Origin: Escherichia virus TH57
Strand: one strand, 5' to 3'
Length of the DNA: 64,000 bases
Sequence record: MT446422.1
The notes under the pieces are model-generated. The model saw nothing but the letters and a program-made list of their open reading frames with translations. It had not been told where the DNA came from and ran no database searches. The position numbers and the translations under genes are program-made. Positions 2,970 through 59,243 of this stretch are shown here, piece by piece. The stretch's first letter is position 1; every line of letters begins with the position of its first letter.

Positions 2970-3167
2970 TTTATGAAAACTAAAGAAAAGCATTTAAAGC
3001 TTGAAGAGCTTATCGAGGCCTTATGCAGGTACAGTTGCTAGATTCGAAACAGCATTTTGTCACCAATACTCGGTTGATGATTGTACTAGGCTTTCTAAAG
3101 AAGAAGATAATGCCCTTAAAGAATTGCTAAATTTTATTAAACAAAATGTGAAATGAGGAAATAGAAA

Positions 3168-3728
3168 ATGATTATTGAAACGACTGAATTGTTTGGCGAA
3201 CTGACCGCTGAAGTAGTTAATAACGCAATTGAGCTTTGTCAAGAAGACGATAAAATCGTACTGACTATCGCTGATATTAAACCGCTTTATGATTTAATGG
3301 TTTTGGATAGACACGATTATCTTAATGGTCGTGCTAGTGCTCCTATTGATATCAATGATGATATGTATGCCTATATCTATAAAAATGAAGCTGGGTTTAA
3401 TCTGGAAAATGGTATTGAATGTCTGAGCATCAGCGATTCTGATAAATTCTTTGATTGTATTTTCAAACTCTTTCAGGAAGAATGTAAACCAGAAGTTGAA
3501 TGGAAAGTCCCAGGACAAGACGCACTGATTCGTTCTAGCGAAACGTTTGAAGGCGATGAAGAGGAATTAGATTATAACACTGAACTGACTGTGCATCAAC
3601 ATAACGGCCGTGACTTGTTGTCCATTGTCCAAAGACATGACGGCGAAAGTGAAGTAGTATTTACTAAGGACGAGCTAAAAGTTTTAGTCTCTTATCTGAA
3701 CTCTGTTATCCCAACTATGAACGCTTAA
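3168..3728 (+). CDS. hypothetical acidic protein
   Basis: 186-aa ORF with GAGGAAA SD, D/E-rich. Confidence 0.55.
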   Translation: MIIETTELFGELTAEVVNNAIELCQEDDKIVLTIADIKPLYDLMVLDRHDYLNGRASAPIDINDDMYAYIYKNEAGFNLENGIECLSISDSDKFFDCIFKLFQEECKPEVEWKVPGQDALIRSSETFEGDEEELDYNTELTVHQHNGRDLLSIVQRHDGESEVVFTKDELKVLVSYLNSVIPTMNA

Positions 3729-5203: not shown

Positions 5204-5229
5204 AAGGACCCTTCGGGGTCCTTTTTTTA
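5204..5229 (+). terminator. rho-independent terminator
   Basis: GGACCC-TTCG-GGGTCC hairpin followed by TTTTTTT. Confidence 0.75.
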
Positions 5230-5242
5230 TTTTAAAAAGTAG

Positions 5243-5311
5243 TGTACGACCAGATGGTTATGAGGCATAATGATTCCATACTGAGTTACCAAATAAAAAC
5301 TGGAGAATAAA
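5243..5311 (+). promoter_or_regulatory. early promoter cassette, CCATACTGAGTTACC leader type
   Basis: AAAAAGTAGTGTAC -35 region, 17-bp spacer, CATAAT, conserved leader GATTCCATACTGAGTTACCAAA..CTGGAGAATAAA ATG. Confidence 0.6.
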
Positions 5312-5518
5312 ATGTTAGAATTAATCAAAGCTGCTGGTGAAAAAGGTCTGATGGTTAACACTCGTGACCCTGAACAACGTCAAGCATTTGGTGAGTTAAA
5401 AGCCAAAGGTCTGGTTAAAGCATCCCTTGGTATTGGCAATGCTTTGCGTGTGACTTTGACCCCTGCAGGTAAAGCAATGTTCTTCCCTAAACCATTACCA
5501 AAACGTCGTCGCAAGTGA
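5312..5518 (+). CDS. hypothetical small basic protein
   Basis: 68 aa, C-terminal KRRRK, directly after promoter cassette. Confidence 0.5.
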   Translation: MLELIKAAGEKGLMVNTRDPEQRQAFGELKAKGLVKASLGIGNALRVTLTPAGKAMFFPKPLPKRRRK

Positions 5519-15255: not shown

Positions 15256-15553
15256 GATTGAAATTTATGGTATCCCCGAAGAAGTCGGTCGATGCCCTGG
15301 TTGTATGCACGTAAGGAGCCTTCTGGGCTCCTTAAACCTTCCTTATACATTCTATTCAGTCCTTAACAAACAAGGCTCTGAAATCGCTTATGACAGGCCT
15401 TTAATCATGTCTTTGGCTAAGCGTGCTGGATATCCTACCCTTAACATTCGTTACCCAGTGATTTTTGTCAATGATGAAAAAATGACAAATATTCCTGCCT
15501 TTAAAACAAAACTGATATCCCTGGGGTACGACCAGGACTTAATTGAAGATTAA
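15236..15553 (+). CDS. glutaredoxin-like protein (nrdH-like)
   Basis: 105 aa from GTG with AAGGAG SD; CPGC dithiol motif; position matches T4 nrdH. Confidence 0.5.
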   Translation: MGQNSTKIEIYGIPEEVGRCPGCMHVRSLLGSLNLPYTFYSVLNKQGSEIAYDRPLIMSLAKRAGYPTLNIRYPVIFVNDEKMTNIPAFKTKLISLGYDQDLIED

Positions 15554-16489: not shown

Positions 16490-16687
16490 ATGAACCCTGA
16501 ATCTAAATTATCACAGCGAATTGCTGAAGCTCGTCGCCAGTTTTTTGAAAATATGATAGCTCAAGGTATCGATGACGAAGTTTTTCTAAACTGGTTTTGG
16601 AATCACAAGTATTCAAGTTGTTCAGGAGCGATATTCATATCAGCCGCAATGATGTATGAAGGCTGGAAAGCGGCTAAAGCGCAATAA
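16490..16687 (+). CDS. hypothetical protein
   Basis: 65-aa ORF. Confidence 0.45.
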   Translation: MNPESKLSQRIAEARRQFFENMIAQGIDDEVFLNWFWNHKYSSCSGAIFISAAMMYEGWKAAKAQ

Positions 16688-44018: not shown

Positions 44019-44256
44019 GGTACATAAAGAAGATTTAGATAATCTTATCTATGGTATTCAGGACGCGGTTGAATTTTTCGAAGATAATCCAACTATCGTC
44101 GTGCAGGGTAATTACGTTTTGCTGGAACTGAATCTTATTCGGAAACGTATGGCCGCGATTGAATATTTTAACAATGAAGAGCCAGGGATTTTTATCTCCG
44201 ACTATGTTGCTGGTGAAATTCAGAAATTAAAAGAGATGTGCGATGGTTGCTGGTGA
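44011..44256 (+). CDS. hypothetical protein
   Basis: 81-aa ORF whose last 17 codons run into the 40-bp tandem duplication. Confidence 0.45.
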   Translation: MYKVHKEDLDNLIYGIQDAVEFFEDNPTIVVQGNYVLLELNLIRKRMAAIEYFNNEEPGIFISDYVAGEIQKLKEMCDGCW

Positions 44257-44285
44257 AATTCAAAAATTAAAAGAGATGTGCGATG
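44206..44285 (+). repeat. 40-bp direct tandem duplication (2 copies, 1 mismatch)
   Basis: GTTGCTGGTGAAATTCAGAAATTAAAAGAGATGTGCGATG at 44206-44245 and again at 44246-44285 with G to A at unit position 18. Confidence 0.9.
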
Positions 44286-52566: not shown

Positions 52567-53541
52567 ATGTTTAATATTAAAGCTTTATCCAAATTTGACC
52601 AAAACCAGGTAGTTTCTCTTTATAAAACTGGTAATTATACCCAACAGGAACTAGCAGATAATTTCGGTGTATCGGTTGACACCATTCGCCGTGTTTTGAA
52701 AAATGATAAAGAATCAAAATTATCTAAAACCATTTCTGCATCACTGAAAGCAGCTGTTGGTGTGGCGATTAATGCTCCGGTGACAGTAACGGTTGAAGTC
52801 CCGGTTGTTGAAGATACAATCGGCGGGAGCCGCCCGGAAATCGTATGGAATGCATCAAGCAAATTCGTTTCCATCACCGAAGGTCGTACGGTCTGGAACG
52901 CAACAAAAGACCATAAACACTTTAATGATATTATTCAGGCATTGATTGAATCTCGTTTTGATGATGCTATCGAGTTTATCTCAATCAAAGCTGCAGTACA
53001 AAAATATGTGAAAGGCGATGTGCGTATTGAAGGTGGTAGTTTGTTCTATCAGGGAATTGAACTGCGCTCTGGCCTGGTTACTCGTATCATTGATTCAATG
53101 CAAAATGGCGAAGACTTTGAATTCTATCTGCCGTTCCTTGAGAATCTCCTTGAGAACCCGAGTGAGAAAGCTGTACAGCGTTTGTTTGACTTCCTGGTTG
53201 CAAACGATATCGAAATCACCGAAGATGGCCATTTCATCGCCTGGAAAATGGTTCGTTCAACCTACAAAGATTGCCACTCAAACACATTCGACAACAGCCC
53301 TGGCCAATATGTTAAAATGCCGCGCTCTCGTGTGAATGACAATGACGAACAGACCTGTTCAACTGGGCTGCACGTTTGTTCTAAAGGTTATATCGGAAGT
53401 GGCTTTGGTCATGGTGATGGGCGCATCGTATCCTGTAAAGTTCACCCGCGCGATGTTGTAAGCATCCCGGTGGATTATAATGATTCCAAAATGAGGGTAT
53501 GTGGTTATCTGGTCCTTGATGATGTAACTGAACAATTCTAA
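52567..53541 (+). CDS. rIIB: rIIB protein
   Basis: 324 aa immediately downstream of rIIA. Confidence 0.85.
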   Translation: MFNIKALSKFDQNQVVSLYKTGNYTQQELADNFGVSVDTIRRVLKNDKESKLSKTISASLKAAVGVAINAPVTVTVEVPVVEDTIGGSRPEIVWNASSKFVSITEGRTVWNATKDHKHFNDIIQALIESRFDDAIEFISIKAAVQKYVKGDVRIEGGSLFYQGIELRSGLVTRIIDSMQNGEDFEFYLPFLENLLENPSEKAVQRLFDFLVANDIEITEDGHFIAWKMVRSTYKDCHSNTFDNSPGQYVKMPRSRVNDNDEQTCSTGLHVCSKGYIGSGFGHGDGRIVSCKVHPRDVVSIPVDYNDSKMRVCGYLVLDDVTEQF

Positions 53542-53574
53542 ATGAATCGGGGCTTCGGCCCCTAATGAGGCTTT

Positions 53575-53772
53575 ATGTTAGGTTTCCAAGCACGTGTAGT
53601 TGAAGAATATGACCAGCTGGTTTTGAAAATCAATGCTCTTGAAGAATTTATTAAGGGCGGTGTTTTTGAAACTCTCGATGCTCGTCAACAAGGTCTTTTG
53701 ATTGCCCAGTTAGATGCAATGGGTGCTTATGCTCATGTACTGGCAATTCGTATCTCTTATTTTGGTGAATAA
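53575..53772 (+). CDS. hypothetical protein
   Basis: 65-aa ORF. Confidence 0.45.
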   Translation: MLGFQARVVEEYDQLVLKINALEEFIKGGVFETLDARQQGLLIAQLDAMGAYAHVLAIRISYFGE

Positions 53773-53775
53773 ATT

Positions 53776-54045
53776 ATGATTAAGCATTTCAATGTGTCAG
53801 ACCGTGACATCAAAGTTTCAAATCTCCGGGGTCACCATTACGCAGGAATAGTTTACTGTGGCAAGCTCATCAAGCATGAAGGTGATGTTCACTATGGCTG
53901 GTTGGAATGTGATGAAGTAGTTGTTGGGGAATTCCCTGACCCGGATTCTGATACATTTGATGCTAATGACCGTTTGTATTATGGCGAGCTTCATATCCGG
54001 GGAATCGTCGGTATCGATGAGGTAAAAGATGATTCAGAAGAGTAA
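53776..54045 (+). CDS. hypothetical protein
   Basis: 89-aa ORF. Confidence 0.5.
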   Translation: MIKHFNVSDRDIKVSNLRGHHYAGIVYCGKLIKHEGDVHYGWLECDEVVVGEFPDPDSDTFDANDRLYYGELHIRGIVGIDEVKDDSEE

Positions 54046-54622
54046 AACATGGGAGCATCTGAAAAAGATGCCCTCCTTTCTTTATACAAAGGAAGACTTA
54101 ACACCTGAATCCCTACAAAAGATTGTAGACACGGCCAGGTATTCATTGCGTAAAGACCCAGGTCAAGACCGTGAGCAAGTCATGCAAAGATGTATGGTGG
54201 CTACAATGGCAGAACAAGCTATTGCTAAATGGACCTCCGGCTTTTTATGCGGCGGTGATGAAGATTACGATAATCCTTATTCCTTTGCATTTGATGTAGT
54301 TTCGAAGGAAGGGGTAAGAATCGAAGTCAAGACCCACCAGTCTGGTTCCAAATGGATATCCGTGCATACTGGTAGTCAGGGCGATTATCCACATGGTTAC
54401 GGGATTAATCTTGGTCCTTTTATGCAACACAAGCTTGCTGACCTTATGATTATGTTTAATGTAAAAGAGACTATCAAAGGTTATAGATTTAAACCAAAAT
54501 TCCTTGCTGGGCCTGGGGCTTTTGTTCCTGAGTCCGGTCTTGTGCAGAAGTCACAAGGGGATGGCTGGTACCTCCGTTCTTGTTCAGAAGAAAAATTCCC
54601 CTATCACCGGTTTACAAGCTGA
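54029..54622 (+). CDS. hypothetical protein (possibly denB-like by position)
   Basis: 197-aa ORF between rIIB and ndd; no motif recognised. Confidence 0.45.
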   Translation: MIQKSKTWEHLKKMPSFLYTKEDLTPESLQKIVDTARYSLRKDPGQDREQVMQRCMVATMAEQAIAKWTSGFLCGGDEDYDNPYSFAFDVVSKEGVRIEVKTHQSGSKWISVHTGSQGDYPHGYGINLGPFMQHKLADLMIMFNVKETIKGYRFKPKFLAGPGAFVPESGLVQKSQGDGWYLRSCSEEKFPYHRFTS

Positions 54623-54669
54623 ACCAACCATGTAATAATGTCCTCACACCAACAAATGAGGACATTATC

Positions 54670-54945
54670 ATGGACCACGTTACTACTCACAACATTAAAC
54701 AAATTCTTATTCAAGCACTCAAAAACAACAACATCAATTTTCCAACCCATGAAATTTTTGATGTGGTATTCAACGAAGTCCAGGGTCAAGTTGCATATTA
54801 TGACGTTATCGTTTATCTTTCAGAATTTGAAGTCTACCACCTGACTGAAATCGCTTTCTATCTCTATCGTGGAACAGCAGATTTTACTGGTGTCGTGAAT
54901 GCAGTTGGCGCATATAAAGAAGTTAAAGAACAAATGCACAATTAA
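54670..54945 (+). CDS. hypothetical protein
   Basis: 91 aa from in-frame ATG. Confidence 0.45.
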   Translation: MDHVTTHNIKQILIQALKNNNINFPTHEIFDVVFNEVQGQVAYYDVIVYLSEFEVYHLTEIAFYLYRGTADFTGVVNAVGAYKEVKEQMHN

Positions 54946-54955
54946 TTAAAAAGTA

Positions 54956-55019
54956 GTGTACATCAGTATGGAGTCTATGTATAATGATTCCATACTGAGT
55001 TACCAAACTGGAGAATAAA
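54956..55019 (+). promoter_or_regulatory. early promoter cassette, CCATACTGAGTTACC leader type
   Basis: AAAAAGTAGTGTAC, 18 bp, TATAAT, GATTCCATACTGAGTTACCAAACTGGAGAATAAA ATG; AGTATGGA...TCCATACT inverted repeat around -10. Confidence 0.6.
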
Positions 55020-55175
55020 ATGAAACCTGCTCAATATGCAATGACTTTATACCTTGAAGTTAATGGCGATATTACTGAATTTTTTAAATTAATGCAACAG
55101 CGTGGAAAAAGTTTTGCAGTTACTGAGCGTCAATTTTACGCTTGCCGTAAAAATACATACAATCGTTATGCATGA
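55020..55175 (+). CDS. hypothetical small protein
   Basis: 51 aa directly after conserved leader; not in track. Confidence 0.4.
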   Translation: MKPAQYAMTLYLEVNGDITEFFKLMQQRGKSFAVTERQFYACRKNTYNRYA

Positions 55176-55185
55176 GGAAAATAAA

Positions 55186-55452
55186 ATGGATATTAAATTA
55201 TACTACGCCAAACACAAAGTTACAGGTATGGTTGTTGCCGCTATGTATGATGCGTCAGGTGATGGTGATGATGTTACCACAGAATTGTCTCTTTCTGATT
55301 GTAAATTTCTTCGTCCATTGATTGCATCAAAGGAAGATTTGGAAAAGCTTATTGATGGAAAACTGGATAATGTTGATGGCATAGATATTCTTTATGACCT
55401 TCGCACCGCATTGCACAGGGGTCTGATTGAAATAAAAGAGGTGATATTTTGA
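55186..55452 (+). CDS. hypothetical protein
   Basis: 88 aa from ATG with GAGGAAAA SD. Confidence 0.45.
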   Translation: MDIKLYYAKHKVTGMVVAAMYDASGDGDDVTTELSLSDCKFLRPLIASKEDLEKLIDGKLDNVDGIDILYDLRTALHRGLIEIKEVIF

Positions 55453-55542
55453 GCAGCAAAACCTGGTGTCTTATCTGGATGCTGTGTATCCCAGTAATTT
55501 GCGTTTGTTTTAGTTTATTATTAATGAAACTTGCATAAAAGA

Positions 55543-55597
55543 GTGTACATCTCCGGTGGTTGTAGTATAATGAACCTATCAACTACTGGAGATGATT
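55543..55597 (+). promoter_or_regulatory. early promoter cassette, CATCAACTACTG leader type
   Basis: GTGTAC, 17 bp, TATAAT, GAACCTATCAACTACTGGAGATGATT ATG. Confidence 0.55.
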
Positions 55598-55714
55598 ATG
55601 AAAAAGTTACTTAAAGCCATTTGGAACATGTTTGTATTGTTTGTTGTCCTGAGCATTTTCCCAATTGTTTTTATGATTGACCATGTGCGCGTTTACTTTA
55701 ACTATTTCTTTTGA
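55598..55714 (+). CDS. hypothetical small membrane protein
   Basis: 38 aa, one TM segment; not in track. Confidence 0.35.
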   Translation: MKKLLKAIWNMFVLFVVLSIFPIVFMIDHVRVYFNYFF

Positions 55715-55724
55715 GGATAATATT

Positions 55725-55931
55725 ATGAATTACAATTCACAATTTCAGAAATCCAATCGTCGCTTTGACTTTATGTTCAAGTTTATTGTGGCGATGATTA
55801 TCCTGATTTTCATTGGTGCCATTGCAATGATTAGTTTCCAGCTCTGGATTGCTGCTGAAGTGTTCACACAAATCCAGGATAATGGTTTGAAGTCTGTTGT
55901 TGATGTAATTTGGAATGGAGCTAAGCAATGA
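55725..55931 (+). CDS. hypothetical membrane protein
   Basis: 68 aa from ATG with GAGGATAA SD. Confidence 0.45.
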   Translation: MNYNSQFQKSNRRFDFMFKFIVAMIILIFIGAIAMISFQLWIAAEVFTQIQDNGLKSVVDVIWNGAKQ

Positions 55932-56173
55932 AACTTTTTAAAGACATTGCAGTTGGTGAAAAATTTGTCCTGGGTAATGGTCAACAACTGATTCGCATTT
56001 CGCCTTTAATGGATAACAGCGAGCGCCCCGTGCGCACTGAAAACTGTTTGGATTATCCTTTTTATCAGAAGCGTTTTGCAATTGAAAATAATACTGAGTG
56101 CTTCACAGTTGATGAACTGATGGAATCATCAGAAGAAGTTGACTTGTGGGATGGCGCAGTAGACCCTGAATAA
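55928..56173 (+). CDS. hypothetical protein
   Basis: 81-aa ORF, ATGA overlap. Confidence 0.5.
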   Translation: MKLFKDIAVGEKFVLGNGQQLIRISPLMDNSERPVRTENCLDYPFYQKRFAIENNTECFTVDELMESSEEVDLWDGAVDPE

Positions 56174-56188
56174 ATTGAGGAAATCATT

Positions 56189-56530
56189 ATGTCTAAATTA
56201 TTTTTTGGTAATGCCAATGTTATGTTCTTTAAGAACCTTAGTCTCCAAGATGCAGCTTTATGTAATCAAGGGCAGATTCCAGGGTTACATTTAAAAACTG
56301 TAATGAGCACAGATTTTGTTTTTGTTCAAGACCCTGATACAGGTTTTTACAGATTTATTAAATTCCGTATGTGCATGGACCCCGACTATCGCAATGCTTA
56401 CTATGTAAGTTATGAAAATGTTATTAAAGAATTACGTAATACCTATGGATATGCTTTGATAAACCTGAATAAGGTGTATAACGCTACTTGTTACACCCCC
56501 GAATTTATTTTAGAACAACTTCAAAAATAG
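56189..56530 (+). CDS. hypothetical protein
   Basis: 113-aa ORF with GAGGAAA SD. Confidence 0.5.
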   Translation: MSKLFFGNANVMFFKNLSLQDAALCNQGQIPGLHLKTVMSTDFVFVQDPDTGFYRFIKFRMCMDPDYRNAYYVSYENVIKELRNTYGYALINLNKVYNATCYTPEFILEQLQK

Positions 56531-56603
56531 TGTACAAACTCATGGGGTCAGAGTATAATGACCCCACTGGAGCACAAAACTTTAACTTACTGAGGAAATT
56601 AAT
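56530..56603 (+). promoter_or_regulatory. early promoter cassette with inverted repeat around -10
   Basis: GTGTAC; GGGGTCA-GAGTATAAT-GACCCC; CACTGGAGCACAAAAC leader. Confidence 0.55.
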
Positions 56604-57053
56604 ATGACTACTTACATGACCCGTCGTGACGTACTGAATGCTGGCGCTACCACTGTTGCTCACATCCATAATGGCAATTATGTTGTAGGGCGTCCAACTA
56701 AAGAAGCTATCACCCAACCAGGTTTTTATTTCGTGGTTAAAGGTGAAGGCGAATCACGTATTGTTGCTGCACGTTTTTACGTTGGTAACCAACGTTCACA
56801 ACAAGGGTTTGACACTGTATTAAGTCACATCCGCAAACAGCGTTCACAACTGTCGCGCACAATGGCGAACAATGGTGTTATCTATGAAGTCCTGTTTGTT
56901 CCAGTTTCTAAAATGAAACCTTTGACAACTGGTTATGGTAAAGGTCAAATTGCGATGGCGTTCACACGCTCACATAGTTCTGATTGTCAGACCCTTTCAG
57001 AAATGAATCGCATGCTTGCTGATAACTTTAAATTCATTTTGCAGAGCTATTAA
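56604..57053 (+). CDS. ndd: nucleoid disruption protein Ndd
   Basis: 149 aa; [14 protein letters not shown]...[12 protein letters not shown]...[11 protein letters not shown] matches recalled T4 Ndd. Confidence 0.9.
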
Positions 57054-57054
57054 T

Positions 57055-57135
57055 ATGAGTAATTTCCATAATGAACATGTGATGCAATGGCATCGTCATA
57101 ATCTGAAATTAACCGGCGTCTTTGGGCGCCCTTGA
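57055..57135 (+). CDS. stp: Stp peptide (PrrC anticodon-nuclease activator)
   Basis: 26 aa [26 protein letters not shown], near-identical to recalled T4 Stp; not in track. Confidence 0.8.
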
Positions 57136-57142
57136 GGAAAAT

Positions 57143-57298
57143 ATGAATAAATTTGTTTATAGTGTAGCTTTTTTCTGTTGGTCATTTGTATTTGTTGGAA
57201 CATTATTAACTGGAGAAACTTCAGTATTTTCACAGGCGATTGCTCAAGGTACCGTAGCGGTTTTATCACTATTTAAATTATTGGATAAAAATGATTAA
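57143..57298 (+). CDS. ac: Ac-like small membrane protein (positional)
   Basis: 51 aa, membrane; position between stp and 52; same length as T4 Ac; not in track. Confidence 0.5.
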   Translation: MNKFVYSVAFFCWSFVFVGTLLTGETSVFSQAIAQGTVAVLSLFKLLDKND

Positions 57299-57431
57299 GA
57301 AAATCTTGGGCTACTCATTAGCCCTTGCTACCTTATTGGTGGCGCTGTATTATGGAGTTGTATTTGCATTAGTGCAGGTTGTGCTTTTTATTTCTGATGC
57401 TATAATGGCAGTACATTCGTTAATCTGGTAA
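57291..57431 (+). CDS. hypothetical small membrane protein (52.1 position)
   Basis: 46 aa; not in track. Confidence 0.4.
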   Translation: MIKKILGYSLALATLLVALYYGVVFALVQVVLFISDAIMAVHSLIW

Positions 57432-57439
57432 GGTGATAT

Positions 57440-58819
57440 ATGTCTGACGTTTTAAGTATGATGTCCAAACAGTTCAGTGATTCCATGGGGTCCCTTAACC
57501 CACGCAGTCTAAAAGACATTATTGATGTGGAAGCATTGTCATATGCTATCTACACTGTGGAAGGTCGTGCCATCCCAAACATGATTGATGGTTTTAAACC
57601 AGTTCACAGATTTGTTATGGCGAGAGCATTAGACCTGGCTCGTGGCGATAAGAATAAATTCCATAAGGTTGCCTCCATTGCAGGTGGCGTAGCTGATTAT
57701 GGTTATCACCATGGCGAAGCATCAGCGGAAGAAGCAACTTCTGGTCTGGTCGCAACATATAAAAATGAATACCCCATGTTTGATGGGCAAGGCAACTTTG
57801 GTTCCAGAATGGTGCCAGAAGCATCATCAGCTCGTTATGTATTCGCAAGGGTTTCAAAGAACTTTTATAACTTGTTTAAGGATACAGAATATGCTCCGGT
57901 CCATCCTGATGAAGAACATAAGCCTCCTGCTTTTTATCTTCCTGTTATTCCTACTGTATTACTTAACGCCACTTCTGGGATTGCTGTTGGCTTCGCTACT
58001 GATATTCTTCCTCATTCGTTCCAGGACGTCAAGGAAGCTGTTAAAGCTATCGTGGAAGGTCGTGAGCCGGTTGCTCCGAAAGTAAAATATCCAGAATTCC
58101 GTGGTGAAGTTGTTGAGCTGGAAGAGCCTGGTAAGTATGAGCTTCATGGCACGTACAAAATGACTTCCAGGACTCAAATGGAAATTACTGAAATCCCGGT
58201 CCAATGGAACCTGGAAAAGTATACAAGTAAAATCCTGGACCCACTGGAAGAGAAAGGTTTTATCACCTGGAAAGATAACTGTGGCGAGCATGGTTTTGGG
58301 TTTAAGATTAAATTCCGTAAGGAATACAAGCTGGATGGCACTGAAGAAGAAAATCATGAGAAAATCATGAAAGACTTTGGTCTGATTGAGAAGCTCTCCC
58401 AGAACTTAACTGTACTTAATCACAAAGGCAAATTGGCTGAATACACCAACACGCTTGACCTGATTCGCGATTTCGTTGATGTCCGTAAGACTTATGTCCA
58501 AGTGCGAATTGACAGTAAGATTAAAGAAACTGAAGCCGCGTTTAAACTGGCCCGAGCAAAAGTCTTCTTTATTAAAGAAGTGATTGATGGTAAGGTTGTT
58601 ATCCAGGGGAAACCTCGTAAGAAGTTGATTGAGGAGCTCCAGGCGAGTGAAATATATGGCGATTATGCAGAGAAGTTAGTGGCGATGAACATCTACCATA
58701 TGACCTCTGATGAAGCCAAGAAGCTTGCAGACGAAGCAAAGGCTAAGAAAGCCGAGCATGAGTACTGGAAGACAACTGATGTTAAAACTGAATACCTTAA
58801 TGATTTGGAGGCTCTATGA
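57440..58819 (+). CDS. 52: DNA topoisomerase II medium subunit gp52 (GyrA-like)
   Basis: 459 aa; matches recalled T4 gp52. Confidence 0.9.
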   Translation: MSDVLSMMSKQFSDSMGSLNPRSLKDIIDVEALSYAIYTVEGRAIPNMIDGFKPVHRFVMARALDLARGDKNKFHKVASIAGGVADYGYHHGEASAEEATSGLVATYKNEYPMFDGQGNFGSRMVPEASSARYVFARVSKNFYNLFKDTEYAPVHPDEEHKPPAFYLPVIPTVLLNATSGIAVGFATDILPHSFQDVKEAVKAIVEGREPVAPKVKYPEFRGEVVELEEPGKYELHGTYKMTSRTQMEITEIPVQWNLEKYTSKILDPLEEKGFITWKDNCGEHGFGFKIKFRKEYKLDGTEEENHEKIMKDFGLIEKLSQNLTVLNHKGKLAEYTNTLDLIRDFVDVRKTYVQVRIDSKIKETEAAFKLARAKVFFIKEVIDGKVVIQGKPRKKLIEELQASEIYGDYAEKLVAMNIYHMTSDEAKKLADEAKAKKAEHEYWKTTDVKTEYLNDLEAL

Positions 58820-58914
58820 GTTTTGGAGTTGAGTTTGCATTGCTTTGTATTTTCGCGGCAATCGCGGGTGTGATTGTTGGTATGTTTATTGGTAATAAGA
58901 TAGATAAAGACTAG
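58816..58914 (+). CDS. hypothetical small membrane peptide
   Basis: 32 aa, ATGA overlap with gene 52 stop; not in track. Confidence 0.3.
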   Translation: MSFGVEFALLCIFAAIAGVIVGMFIGNKIDKD

Positions 58915-58936
58915 GGCCCTTCGGGGTCCTTTTTTA
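58913..58936 (+). terminator. rho-independent terminator
   Basis: GGGCCC-TTCG-GGGTCC (one mismatch) followed by TTTTTT. Confidence 0.65.
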
Positions 58937-58948
58937 TTTTAAAAAGTA

Positions 58949-59027
58949 GTGTACAAGTCCCTTGACCCGATGCATAATGATTCCATACTGAGTTACACAC
59001 TGAATCATAAAAATTTTGGAGAATAAA
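58949..59027 (+). promoter_or_regulatory. early promoter cassette, CCATACTGAGTTAC leader type
   Basis: AAAAAGTAGTGTAC, CATAAT, GATTCCATACTGAGTTACAC...GGAGAATAAA ATG. Confidence 0.55.
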
Positions 59028-59243
59028 ATGTTTACTGCACAACAGAATGAAGGTCAAGAATACATCAACGCCAAATTCAAATCTAACAAAGAAGCTTGTT
59101 ATTACTACTTTGACATGTTCAAACTGGCAAACTCTAAAGAAGAACGTAAACAAGCGATTGATGTTATTGTTTCTACTTCCCATATGAAACGTACTGTGGT
59201 ACAATCATATGCATCAAATTATATGAAATCTATTAAGGGATAA
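59028..59243 (+). CDS. hypothetical protein
   Basis: 71 aa from ATG after leader (track ORF begins at upstream TTG). Confidence 0.5.
   Translation: MFTAQQNEGQEYINAKFKSNKEACYYYFDMFKLANSKEERKQAIDVIVSTSHMKRTVVQSYASNYMKSIKG

Follow-up and report, generated by a model that had tools for sequence, protein, structure and literature searches.

What kind of region separates rIIB from ndd in Escherichia virus TH57 (MT446422.1), where a run of small genes is interspersed with promoter cassettes? We examined positions 53575-56530 and their flanks within a 64 kb stretch of this genome (hereafter the window), and we put at about 85% the probability that it is an ordinary accessory stretch, the Gaprivervirus form of the well-known dispensable rIIB-52 region of T4. 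All of the parts that were identified are of known kinds, namely the T4 rIIB-52 accessory region, promoter-early stem-loops (PeSLs), DenB, and Sequestin.

The gene order rIIA-rIIB-block-ndd-stp-ac-like-52.1-52, all on the + strand, matches that of T4. The span and its flanks matched 137 phage records, the best of which covered 90-100% of the query at 92-97% identity; the closest record in the phage collection was TH54 (97% identical), and an identical record was not found there. The comparison set comprised 16 relatives with fetched loci, and those carrying a genus label belonged to Gaprivervirus, the VR7/SP18 group of T4-like coliphages. In T4, the sa-delta-9 deletion removes 52.1, ac, stp, ndd, ndd.1-ndd.6, and denB, and the mutant is viable, has a yield roughly half that of the wild type, and no longer shows the stimulation of phospholipid synthesis that follows infection (PMC6071114).

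Eleven small + strand genes, designated O1 to O10 and O6b, were recognized in the span (Table 1). A sequence-only reading of the window had listed ten open reading frames (ORFs) of 38 to 197 amino acids (aa), all of which were recovered, and had missed O6b because it is shorter than 30 aa. For the fourth ORF, listed with a TTG start at 54580, the ATG at 54670 with its Shine-Dalgarno sequence is the sensible start (91 aa). The pooled ratio of non-synonymous to synonymous substitution rates (dN/dS), calculated against up to 16 Gaprivervirus genomes, was 0.00-0.35 for all eleven ORFs, which indicates purifying selection and identifies them as genes rather than chance frames. The frames were intact in all ungapped orthologs except for O6b (3 of 15) and O7 (3 of 16), the exceptions being cases in which a simple gap-free coordinate extension failed.

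BLASTP analysis against T4 revealed orthologs for six of the eleven ORFs and no counterpart for O2, O4, O5, O6, and O10. The region resembles T4 rIIB-52 in its flanking genes, strand, and order, in these six orthologs, and in the stp, ac-like, and 52.1 genes that follow ndd; it differs in the five genes that T4 lacks and in having no ndd.2, no ndd.5, and no ndd.3 as a separate ORF. Four of the six T4 orthologs have no known function, so the block does not reduce to T4 genes of known function. The expectation that some ORFs would be unique to this phage did not hold, as all eleven occur in other phages too.

The view that none of the ORFs was confidently assignable is incorrect, since six are T4 orthologs and two of these have a known function. 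O3 and T4 DenB share 47% identity over 178 aa (BLASTP, E = 1e-56); O3 lies between denB.1 and ndd.x, shows a dN/dS of 0.05, and is annotated as denB in the records of relatives; its match to phrog_1360 (E = 2.4e-80) covers almost the whole protein (Table 1). Judged by homology, O3 is DenB, endonuclease IV, and would cut cytosine-containing single-stranded DNA during host DNA breakdown, dC-specific single-stranded DNA cleavage being a property of the T4 enzyme (PMC6071114).

O1 matched the profile PF21825 with 69.9 bits against a cut-off of 24.8, its residues 4-61 aligning with positions 3-60 of 61, and showed a dN/dS of 0.10. A 2025 preprint names this family Sequestin, and its members bind 3' cyclic ADP-ribose (3'cADPR) and cancel type I Thoeris, as does the 64-aa T4 protein Y16O when put into phage SBSphiJ (10.1101/2025.07.12.664507). 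Because the published cloning primers for Y16O encode MLAYQARVK...LEKRIAQFK, Y16O is T4 DenB.1. The SequestinB pocket consists of R, E, Q, and R, and mutating E, Q, or the second R abolished activity; 3 of 13 family members tested failed to inhibit Thoeris (10.1101/2025.07.12.664507). Residues corresponding to the pocket (R7, E11, Q45, and R59) are present at the same positions in O1 and T4 DenB.1, as read by inspection of these two proteins rather than from an alignment to SequestinB.

O1 therefore shares with the Sequestins its length (65 aa), a strong profile score, 52% identity to T4 DenB.1, the same rIIB-denB locus as in T4, and the four pocket residues; it differs in that about half of its residues are not those of T4 DenB.1. 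By homology, O1 is the ortholog of the anti-Thoeris sponge T4 DenB.1 (Y16O), and an O1 dimer would sequester 3'cADPR, the Thoeris alarm nucleotide. The earlier suggestion that host-takeover or anti-defence genes reside in this block has thus gained one anti-defence gene.

Promoter-hairpin cassettes of the span

Promoter cassettes had been proposed at 54956, 55543, and 56530, and all three positions proved to be exact matches to GTGTACA-N17-TATAAT, each agreeing with the sigma-70 consensus at 10 of 12 positions with spacers of 16-17 nucleotides (nt). Across the 64 kb, GTGTACA-N15-18-TATAAT occurs six times, always on the + strand, where 0.03 occurrences would be expected. A-rich stretches (aaaaagta, cataaaaga, and caaaaata) lie immediately 5' of the -35 elements, a stem-loop lies around each -10 box (Table 1), and the 3' ends of the cassettes carry a Shine-Dalgarno sequence and start codon, namely CTGGAGAATAAAATG (O5), CTGGAGATGATTATG (O7), and TGAGGAAATTAATATG (ndd). 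In PeSL-B, the 3' arm of the hairpin contains the Shine-Dalgarno sequence GGAG of O7 (55588-55591). In PeSL-C, the -10 box lies between the arms, and its last base forms the first pair of the 3' arm. Rfam searches of 53000-57600 found no family.

These three cassettes are PeSLs, and the cassette idea of the sequence-only reading corresponds to a concept described in RB49/phi1 in 2010 (PMC2839356) and extended to T4/PST and KVP40/nt-1 in 2014 (PMC4122927). They share with the PeSLs of RB49 and T4 a sigma-70-like early promoter, an A-rich upstream stretch, a stem-loop at the -10 box or between -35 and -10, a Shine-Dalgarno sequence with ATG at the 3' end, the presence of many copies among small accessory ORFs, and an association with insertions and deletions. 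They differ in their -35 element, which is GTGTACA here, TTGACA in RB49, and TTTACW in T4/PST, and in that the hairpins of the span have no U-tract.

A further promoter-hairpin unit, absent from the list of the sequence-only reading, is likely to be present at 54610. Its hairpin sequesters the GAGGA Shine-Dalgarno sequence and the ATG of O4, and its arms are invariant in 15 genomes, with variation in the loop and the promoter spacer.

Each of the three PeSLs is a member of a repeat family whose copies are scattered across the window. PeSL-A is one of four copies of family D4, the others lying at 5232 (81% identical), 58939 (77%), and 5820 (69%). PeSL-B belongs to families D1-D3, with 5-7 copies each and the motif CC(C/T)ATCAACTACTG, and PeSL-C belongs to the three-copy family D10/D12, whose other members lie at 16685 and 46050, the latter 92% identical to it. 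Cassettes of D1-D3 were also observed at 1712, 15551, 33183, 34138, 40828, and 44964. At 15551 and 33183, a GC hairpin with a T-run behind it carries the -35 element in its loop, and the window thus holds several PeSL architectures. At 5205-5314 and 58913-59030, a terminator-like GGGCCC-UUCG-GGGUCC hairpin with a T-run is directly followed by a promoter of the PeSL-A family and then by CTGGAGAATAAAATG or TTGGAGAATAAAATG; both copies are half PeSLs, since their -10 hairpins have a degraded 5' arm.

Eleven distinct cassette versions, taken from RB69, the window, and the relatives of the window, were aligned. Their core stem of 7 bp, which surrounds the -10 box, was paired in 98.7% of the cells, compared with 32-52% when the partners were slid by 1-3 columns. 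Four of the seven pairs were changed on both sides, and the covariation score was reached in 0 of 500 shuffles. The stem pairs interchange G.U, A-U, and G-C, and G.U states occur only when the sense strand is read; because of these interchanges, the changes fit pairing of the sense-strand RNA rather than of DNA.

Comparison with other phages argued against recent insertion of the cassettes. PeSL-A, B, and C were each found in place in every one of the 16 relatives. They showed point variants in the promoter (CATAAT in four genomes at PeSL-A; GTATACA in two at PeSL-B and in one at PeSL-C) and a G.U to A-U change in the PeSL-B stem. In T4 and JS98, ndd.4 is preceded by a unit built like PeSL-B, in which the promoter spacer supplies the 5' arm, the loop holds the -10 box, and the 3' arm includes the Shine-Dalgarno sequence; its stem sequences differ. 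PeSL-C-like units with other stem sequences precede ndd in RB69 and JS98. Since promoter-hairpins of the same build precede the same genes, the cassette positions before ndd.4 and ndd predate the genera.

How the hairpins may act

The analysis establishes the genes with their homologies and purifying selection, the promoter matches, the hairpins with their covariation, and where the junctions lie; whether the promoters are active, what the hairpins do, and every biochemical activity are inferences. Host sigma-70 RNA polymerase would transcribe the block immediately after infection. Neither MotA-box middle promoters nor TATAAATA late promoters were found inside the span, and the block therefore looks purely early. 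To the right of the span, a MotA-box-like middle promoter (TGCTT-N14-TATAAT, 57382-57406) was observed inside 52.1, upstream of gene 52 (start 57440).

A transcript from a cassette would start a few bases after the -10 box and so would not contain the 5' arm of the hairpin; a read-through transcript from upstream would carry the complete hairpin. At PeSL-B and the O4 unit, where the 3' arm holds the Shine-Dalgarno sequence, read-through RNA would be attenuated and/or left untranslated. Each gene group (O5-O6-O6b, O7-O10, and ndd onwards) would be expressed mainly from its own promoter, because the read-through RNA would be attenuated or silenced by the hairpin.

A tentative reading of this arrangement, which we hold at well below even odds, is that the hairpins are RNA switches marking the origin of the transcript and not terminators. 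Read-through RNA would be masked (PeSL-B and the O4 unit) or marked for decay, cassette genes would be expressed only from their own early promoter, and the ndd.4 arrangement would have been kept between T4, Dhakavirus, and Gaprivervirus by compensatory change. In the T4 genes e (lysozyme), soc, 49, and I-TevI, a hairpin masks the ribosome-binding site on read-through transcripts, whereas transcripts that start at a promoter within the hairpin leave the site accessible. PeSL-B and the O4 unit are similar to these genes in having a promoter in or next to the hairpin, a 5' arm upstream of the start site, and the Shine-Dalgarno sequence in the 3' arm. They differ in that the unmasking promoters of the T4 genes are late, whereas those of the span are predicted to be of the early sigma-70 type.

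A less likely but still serious alternative is that the hairpins act only as terminators or attenuators of upstream transcripts, the role initially put forward for PeSLs, and have no role in translation. One PeSL stem-loop of RB49/phi1 cut downstream lacZ as much as the rrnB T1 terminator did, and other cassettes of the window carry a GC hairpin and T-run beside the promoter (5205-5237, 58913-58945, 15551, and 33183). However, such a U-tract is missing behind the three hairpins of the span, the Shine-Dalgarno sequence itself forms the 3' arm in PeSL-B and in the O4 unit, and the 5' arm in the spacer pairs with the ndd.4 Shine-Dalgarno sequence in T4, JS98, and the window despite their differing stems.

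It appears improbable that the stem-loops function at the DNA level, forming cruciforms or single-strand hairpins at which recombination takes place, and that they are conserved for recombination instead of an RNA function. Crossover points have been mapped in or beside PeSL stem-loops in RB49 and phi1, and the region is highly recombinogenic, but the G.U stem pairs that shift to A-U and G-C would be C.A mismatches on the other DNA strand, and most junctions in the region lie at ribosome-binding sites rather than in stems.

The Shine-Dalgarno sequences themselves fall into two kinds, GGAG at O5 and O7 (55008-55022 and 55585-55600) and GAGG at O8, O10, and ndd. The T4 RegB endoribonuclease cuts GGAG in early ribosome-binding sites. 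By analogy, the GGAG and GAGG gene groups might differ in the speed of their shut-off through RegB-type cutting.

Gene replacement and its junctions

The earlier description of the block as hyperplastic was borne out by nine sets of insertion, deletion, or replacement junctions among the 16 genomes, which are otherwise ~93% identical in DNA (Table 1). All of the junctions lay no more than ~25 nt from a start codon. Inserted units were bracketed by near-identical ribosome-binding-site motifs, either GGAGAATAAAATG with GGAAAATAAAATG, as at the two ends of O5, or TGAGGATAATATTATG on both sides. These motifs have 14 and 7 copies in the window, all on the + strand, against 0.18 and 0.37 expected. 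The usual exchange point here is the ribosome-binding site, including that at the 3' end of a PeSL, and not a pair of flanking cassettes. Gene content has been altered by cassette replacement, with junctions on the ribosome-binding-site motifs (TGAGGAWAATATTATG and CTGGAGAATAAAATG) and on the cassettes.

Known PeSLs have been associated with a swap of ndd.4 and ndd.5 between T4 and PST in the rIIB-ndd region (PMC4122927). Here, the association consists of the O5 insertion or deletion behind PeSL-A, the optional fourth PeSL between O9 and O10, which is present in 6 of the 16 relatives and absent from the window, and O10 alleles swapped upstream of PeSL-C. Unlike the published case, most junctions lie on ribosome-binding-site motifs downstream of or far from a cassette, not between two cassettes. 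The HNH homing-endonuclease gene of the first junction set (953-1444 of the VR7 locus) represents a second, different kind of mobile element on the block.

The sequence-only reading had regarded the cassettes as inserted. That they are recently inserted mobile elements, each of which brought its downstream micro-ORF into a recently assembled block, is an unlikely explanation in spite of their membership in dispersed repeat families, the polymorphic fourth cassette, the restriction of O5, right behind PeSL-A, to 7 of the 16 relatives, and the PeSL mini-circles demonstrated in RB49 and phi1. The positions of PeSL-A, B, and C are identical in all 16 Gaprivervirus genomes, units of the same build precede ndd.4 and ndd in T4, JS98, and RB69 as described above, and the O5 junctions lie at start codons downstream of PeSL-A rather than inside the cassette.

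O10 occurs in three or four allele classes within one genus, with 98%, 73%, and 57% amino-acid identity. Its synonymous substitution rate (dS) is saturated at 1.2-1.4, compared with ~0.15-0.2 in the flanking genes, and the divergence falls off at both gene ends. Positive selection on O10 was rejected, because a dN/dS (omega) of 0.1-0.2 with saturated dS indicates that its alleles are old and have been exchanged by recombination rather than fast-evolving. O5 was found in 15 Gaprivervirus records at at least 98% identity and elsewhere only in Deseoctovirus (e.g., phage C1), where the homologs have the same length and are 53% identical. The Deseoctovirus phages that carry the homolog have genomes of ~47 kb, and in Escherichia phage C1 (3001-3156) it is preceded by a gap of 530 nt and is the first of several consecutive small hypothetical genes. 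Judged from sequence comparison, this distribution suggests that an early gene has passed horizontally between coliphages that are not related.

Accessory genes and the weight of the evidence

The features of the span and its flanks are summarized in Table 1. NCBIfam and PADLOC searches returned nothing relevant for any ORF, and sequence and profile searches of the PDB for O2, O4, O6, O9, and O10 gave no match or chance matches at E ~0.3.

Table 1. Features of the rIIB-ndd span of Escherichia virus TH57 and its flanks (positions in the window; for junction sets, the positions of the left and right junctions are given where available).
Feature	Position	Strand	Details
Tetraloop hairpin GGGGC-UUCG-GCCCC, rIIB to denB.1 spacer	53549..53562	+	-11 kcal/mol
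O1, DenB.1 (by homology), Sequestin family, 65 aa	53575..53772	+	PF21825, E = 1.6e-19; 52% identical to T4 DenB.1 over 63 aa
O2, DUF7418, 89 aa	53776..54045	+	PF24193, E = 3.4e-33; net charge -11
O3, DenB, endonuclease IV (by homology), 197 aa	54029..54622	+	phrog_1360, E = 2.4e-80, residues 1-196
Possible fourth promoter-hairpin unit (O4 unit)	54610..54672	+	GTTTACA-N17-TGtAATAAT, 10/12 promoter match with TG; 12-bp hairpin, 54635-54646 with 54657-54668, -16.9 kcal/mol, z = -5.4
O4, 91 aa	54670..54945	+	phrog_17571; dN/dS 0.09
PeSL-A	54946..55022	+	-35 GTGTACA at 54956; -10 TATAAT at 54980-54985, in the loop; followed by CTGGAGAATAAAATG; 13-bp hairpin, 54963-54975 with 54986-54998, -22.8 kcal/mol, z = -4.9
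O5, orphan cassette gene, 51 aa	55020..55175	+	directly behind PeSL-A
O6, 88 aa	55186..55452	+	phrog_2390, E = 1e-36; dN/dS 0.11
O6b, Ndd.6 homolog, 29 aa	55449..55538	+	one hydrophobic span; 46% identical to T4 Ndd.6, E = 2e-10
PeSL-B	55537..55600	+	-35 GTGTACA at 55543; -10 TATAAT at 55566-55571, in the loop; 18-bp hairpin, 55548-55565 with ~55576-55594, -24.8 kcal/mol, z = -6.5
O7, Ndd.4 homolog, 38 aa	55598..55714	+	one hydrophobic span; 61% identical to T4 Ndd.4; phrog_3098
O8, DUF7248, Ndd.2a-like, 68 aa	55725..55931	+	one hydrophobic span; PF23906, E = 2e-24
O9, Ndd.1 homolog, 81 aa	55928..56173	+	net charge -9; 51% identical to T4 Ndd.1; phrog_2183
O10, 113 aa	56189..56530	+	phrog_10053
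PeSL-C	56524..56606	+	-35 GTGTACA at 56530, overlapping the O10 stop codon; -10 TATAAT at 56554-56559; followed by TGAGGAAATTAATATG, the ndd ribosome-binding site; 8-bp hairpin, 56543-56550 with 56559-56566, -18.5 kcal/mol, z = -2.3
ndd, right-hand boundary gene, 149 aa	56604..57053	+	61% identical to T4 Ndd, E = 4e-66
Junction set 1	53545/53575		HNH endonuclease gene in place of the rIIB to denB.1 spacer (VR7, TH54, MN01, and 212)
Junction set 2	53783/54029		unrelated 106-aa gene replaces O2 in 7 of 16
Junction set 3	55022/55176-55187		O5 present, absent, or replaced
Junction set 4	right junction 55427		O6 replaced in SP18 and PSD2001
Junction set 5	55712-55728		48-aa gene inserted before O8
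Junction set 6	55727 to 56159-56178		O8 and O9 replaced in three genomes
Junction set 7	56176-56191		48-aa gene inserted before O10
Junction set 8	between O9 and O10		optional fourth PeSL
Junction set 9	57146/57290		ac-like gene replaced in several relatives

Among the genes without a T4 counterpart, O2 overlaps the denB start by 17 nt at its 3' end and was found in 673 phage records, several of which, among those listed, have DenB annotated beside it (dN/dS 0.07). O6 is likewise widespread in T4-like phages (659 phage records, six of them with an organism name beginning with Tequatrovirus), its weaker matches being 28-35% identical. O4 was found only within Gaprivervirus (34 phage records, with identities of 92% or more), and Pfam, NCBIfam, PADLOC, and PDB searches with it gave no match. 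For O5, no PHROG or Pfam family was found, and its seven orthologs in the relatives showed no non-synonymous change.

An exhaustive HMMER search with an O10 profile returned seven proteins among 1.84 billion representatives, none of which was annotated. Three of these are small unannotated relatives, and three long matches were regarded as spurious, a short stretch of the profile having been matched repeatedly; in P0030, the long match whose sequence was read, the matched stretch is a repeated DPDTGFYR-like motif. The AlphaFold2 model of O10 (17 homologs) had a predicted local distance difference test (pLDDT) score of 59.4, and the best Foldseek match to the PDB had an E of 0.93 and a template modelling score (TM-score) of 0.33. 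The KTSC label given to the O10 ortholog of EAWsc9 was rejected, as neither O10 nor its remote relatives had a Pfam match and Foldseek with this weak model found nothing.

The Ndd.x homologs include three peptides with one hydrophobic span each. O7 and O8, described earlier as membrane peptides, are strongly hydrophobic, with maximum Kyte-Doolittle 19-residue means of 2.43 and 2.94, and O6b reaches 2.75. The TTG start of O6b overlaps the stop codon of O6; in 17 related genomes, the start is TTG, ATG, or GTG, is preceded by AGAGGTG or a variant of it, and always overlaps the upstream stop. In Yersinia phage P8 (~3129-3215), the Ndd.6 homolog carries a 1-nt deletion with a frameshift after residue 19, the sole broken copy in 17 genomes. 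That the micro-ORFs of 29, 38, and 51 aa (O6b, O7, and O5) are chance frames in a leader or spacer is highly improbable, for although they are very short, O5 has no PHROGs or Pfam family, and the 29-aa ORF starts with TTG, their dN/dS values are 0.21, 0.08, and 0.00, two of the three have T4 homologs, the 29-aa ORF keeps a valid start of three kinds and a Shine-Dalgarno sequence across 17 genomes, and O5 has full-length 53%-identical homologs in unrelated phages.

The Ndd.4 homolog of the window begins at the equivalent of T4 Met6, and the annotated T4 ndd.4 start is ATGGAGGAACAG. To judge from this comparison, the true T4 start may lie five codons downstream of the annotated one, ATGGAGGAACAG resembling a Shine-Dalgarno sequence and hairpin arm. 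The C-terminal 40 aa of O8 are 42% identical to T4 Ndd.2a, and ndd.3 and ndd.2a, which overlap in T4, may together represent a single O8-type gene that is split there; O8 is replaced in 212, RZ, and PSD2001. O9 showed a dN/dS of 0.12, and its homologs carry PF26909. The AlphaFold2 model of O9 (10 homologs) had a pLDDT of 46.6 and was unusable. A Tad2/DUF2829 label on the Ndd.1 ortholog of EAWsc9 was rejected, since neither O9 nor its 10 homologs had a matching Pfam hit at E <=10; a profile search of the PDB with O9 found nothing, and the model was too poor for comparison with Tad2. The MafI, YopX, and COesterase labels in EAWsc9 and the "clamp loader small subunit" and "naphthalene dioxygenase" labels in P8 and ESCO10 were not reproducible and were also rejected.

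At the left edge, T4 carries a GGC-UUCG-GCC hairpin at the place equivalent to the tetraloop hairpin of the rIIB to denB.1 spacer. To the right of ndd, the variable block runs on to gene 52 with a 26-aa Stp homolog (57055-57135), a 51-aa Ac-like membrane peptide that is 40% identical to T4 Ac (57143-57298), and gp52.1, 85% identical to that of T4 (57291-57431). T4 Stp is an activator of the host PrrC anticodon nuclease. Elsewhere in the window, a 40-nt unit, GTTGCTGGTGAAATTCAGAAATTAAAAGAGATGTGCGATG, is repeated twice in tandem at 44206-44285 with 98% identity.

Several points weigh against the account given here. O2, O4, O5, O6, and O10 stand as accessory genes without a functional assignment, and structure prediction failed for both proteins tried, O9 and O10. 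Promoter use and start sites were taken from consensus matches alone. No U-tract was found after the three hairpins of the span and none of them was called terminator-like, so the terminator role proposed for PeSLs is not evident here. The masking geometry is present at two of the four units only, and masking cannot be the whole story, because the Shine-Dalgarno sequences of PeSL-A and PeSL-C lie outside the main stem. Whatever the mechanism of exchange, selection that keeps genes intact would leave an excess of junctions at gene borders, and the microhomology model of exchange is a proposal.

For this region, these results refine the PeSL picture, in that the junctions of exchange fall mostly on repeated ribosome-binding-site motifs and the hairpins bear marks of selection at the RNA level. 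The RNA-switch reading, if true, would account for the joint movement of promoter and hairpin as a single cassette. The phospholipid phenotype of sa-delta-9 provides a lead for the membrane peptides of the span. O2, O4, O5, O6, and O10 are sensible candidates for anti-defence or host-takeover screens, because they lie beside an anti-defence gene, are under purifying selection, and are swapped between phages.

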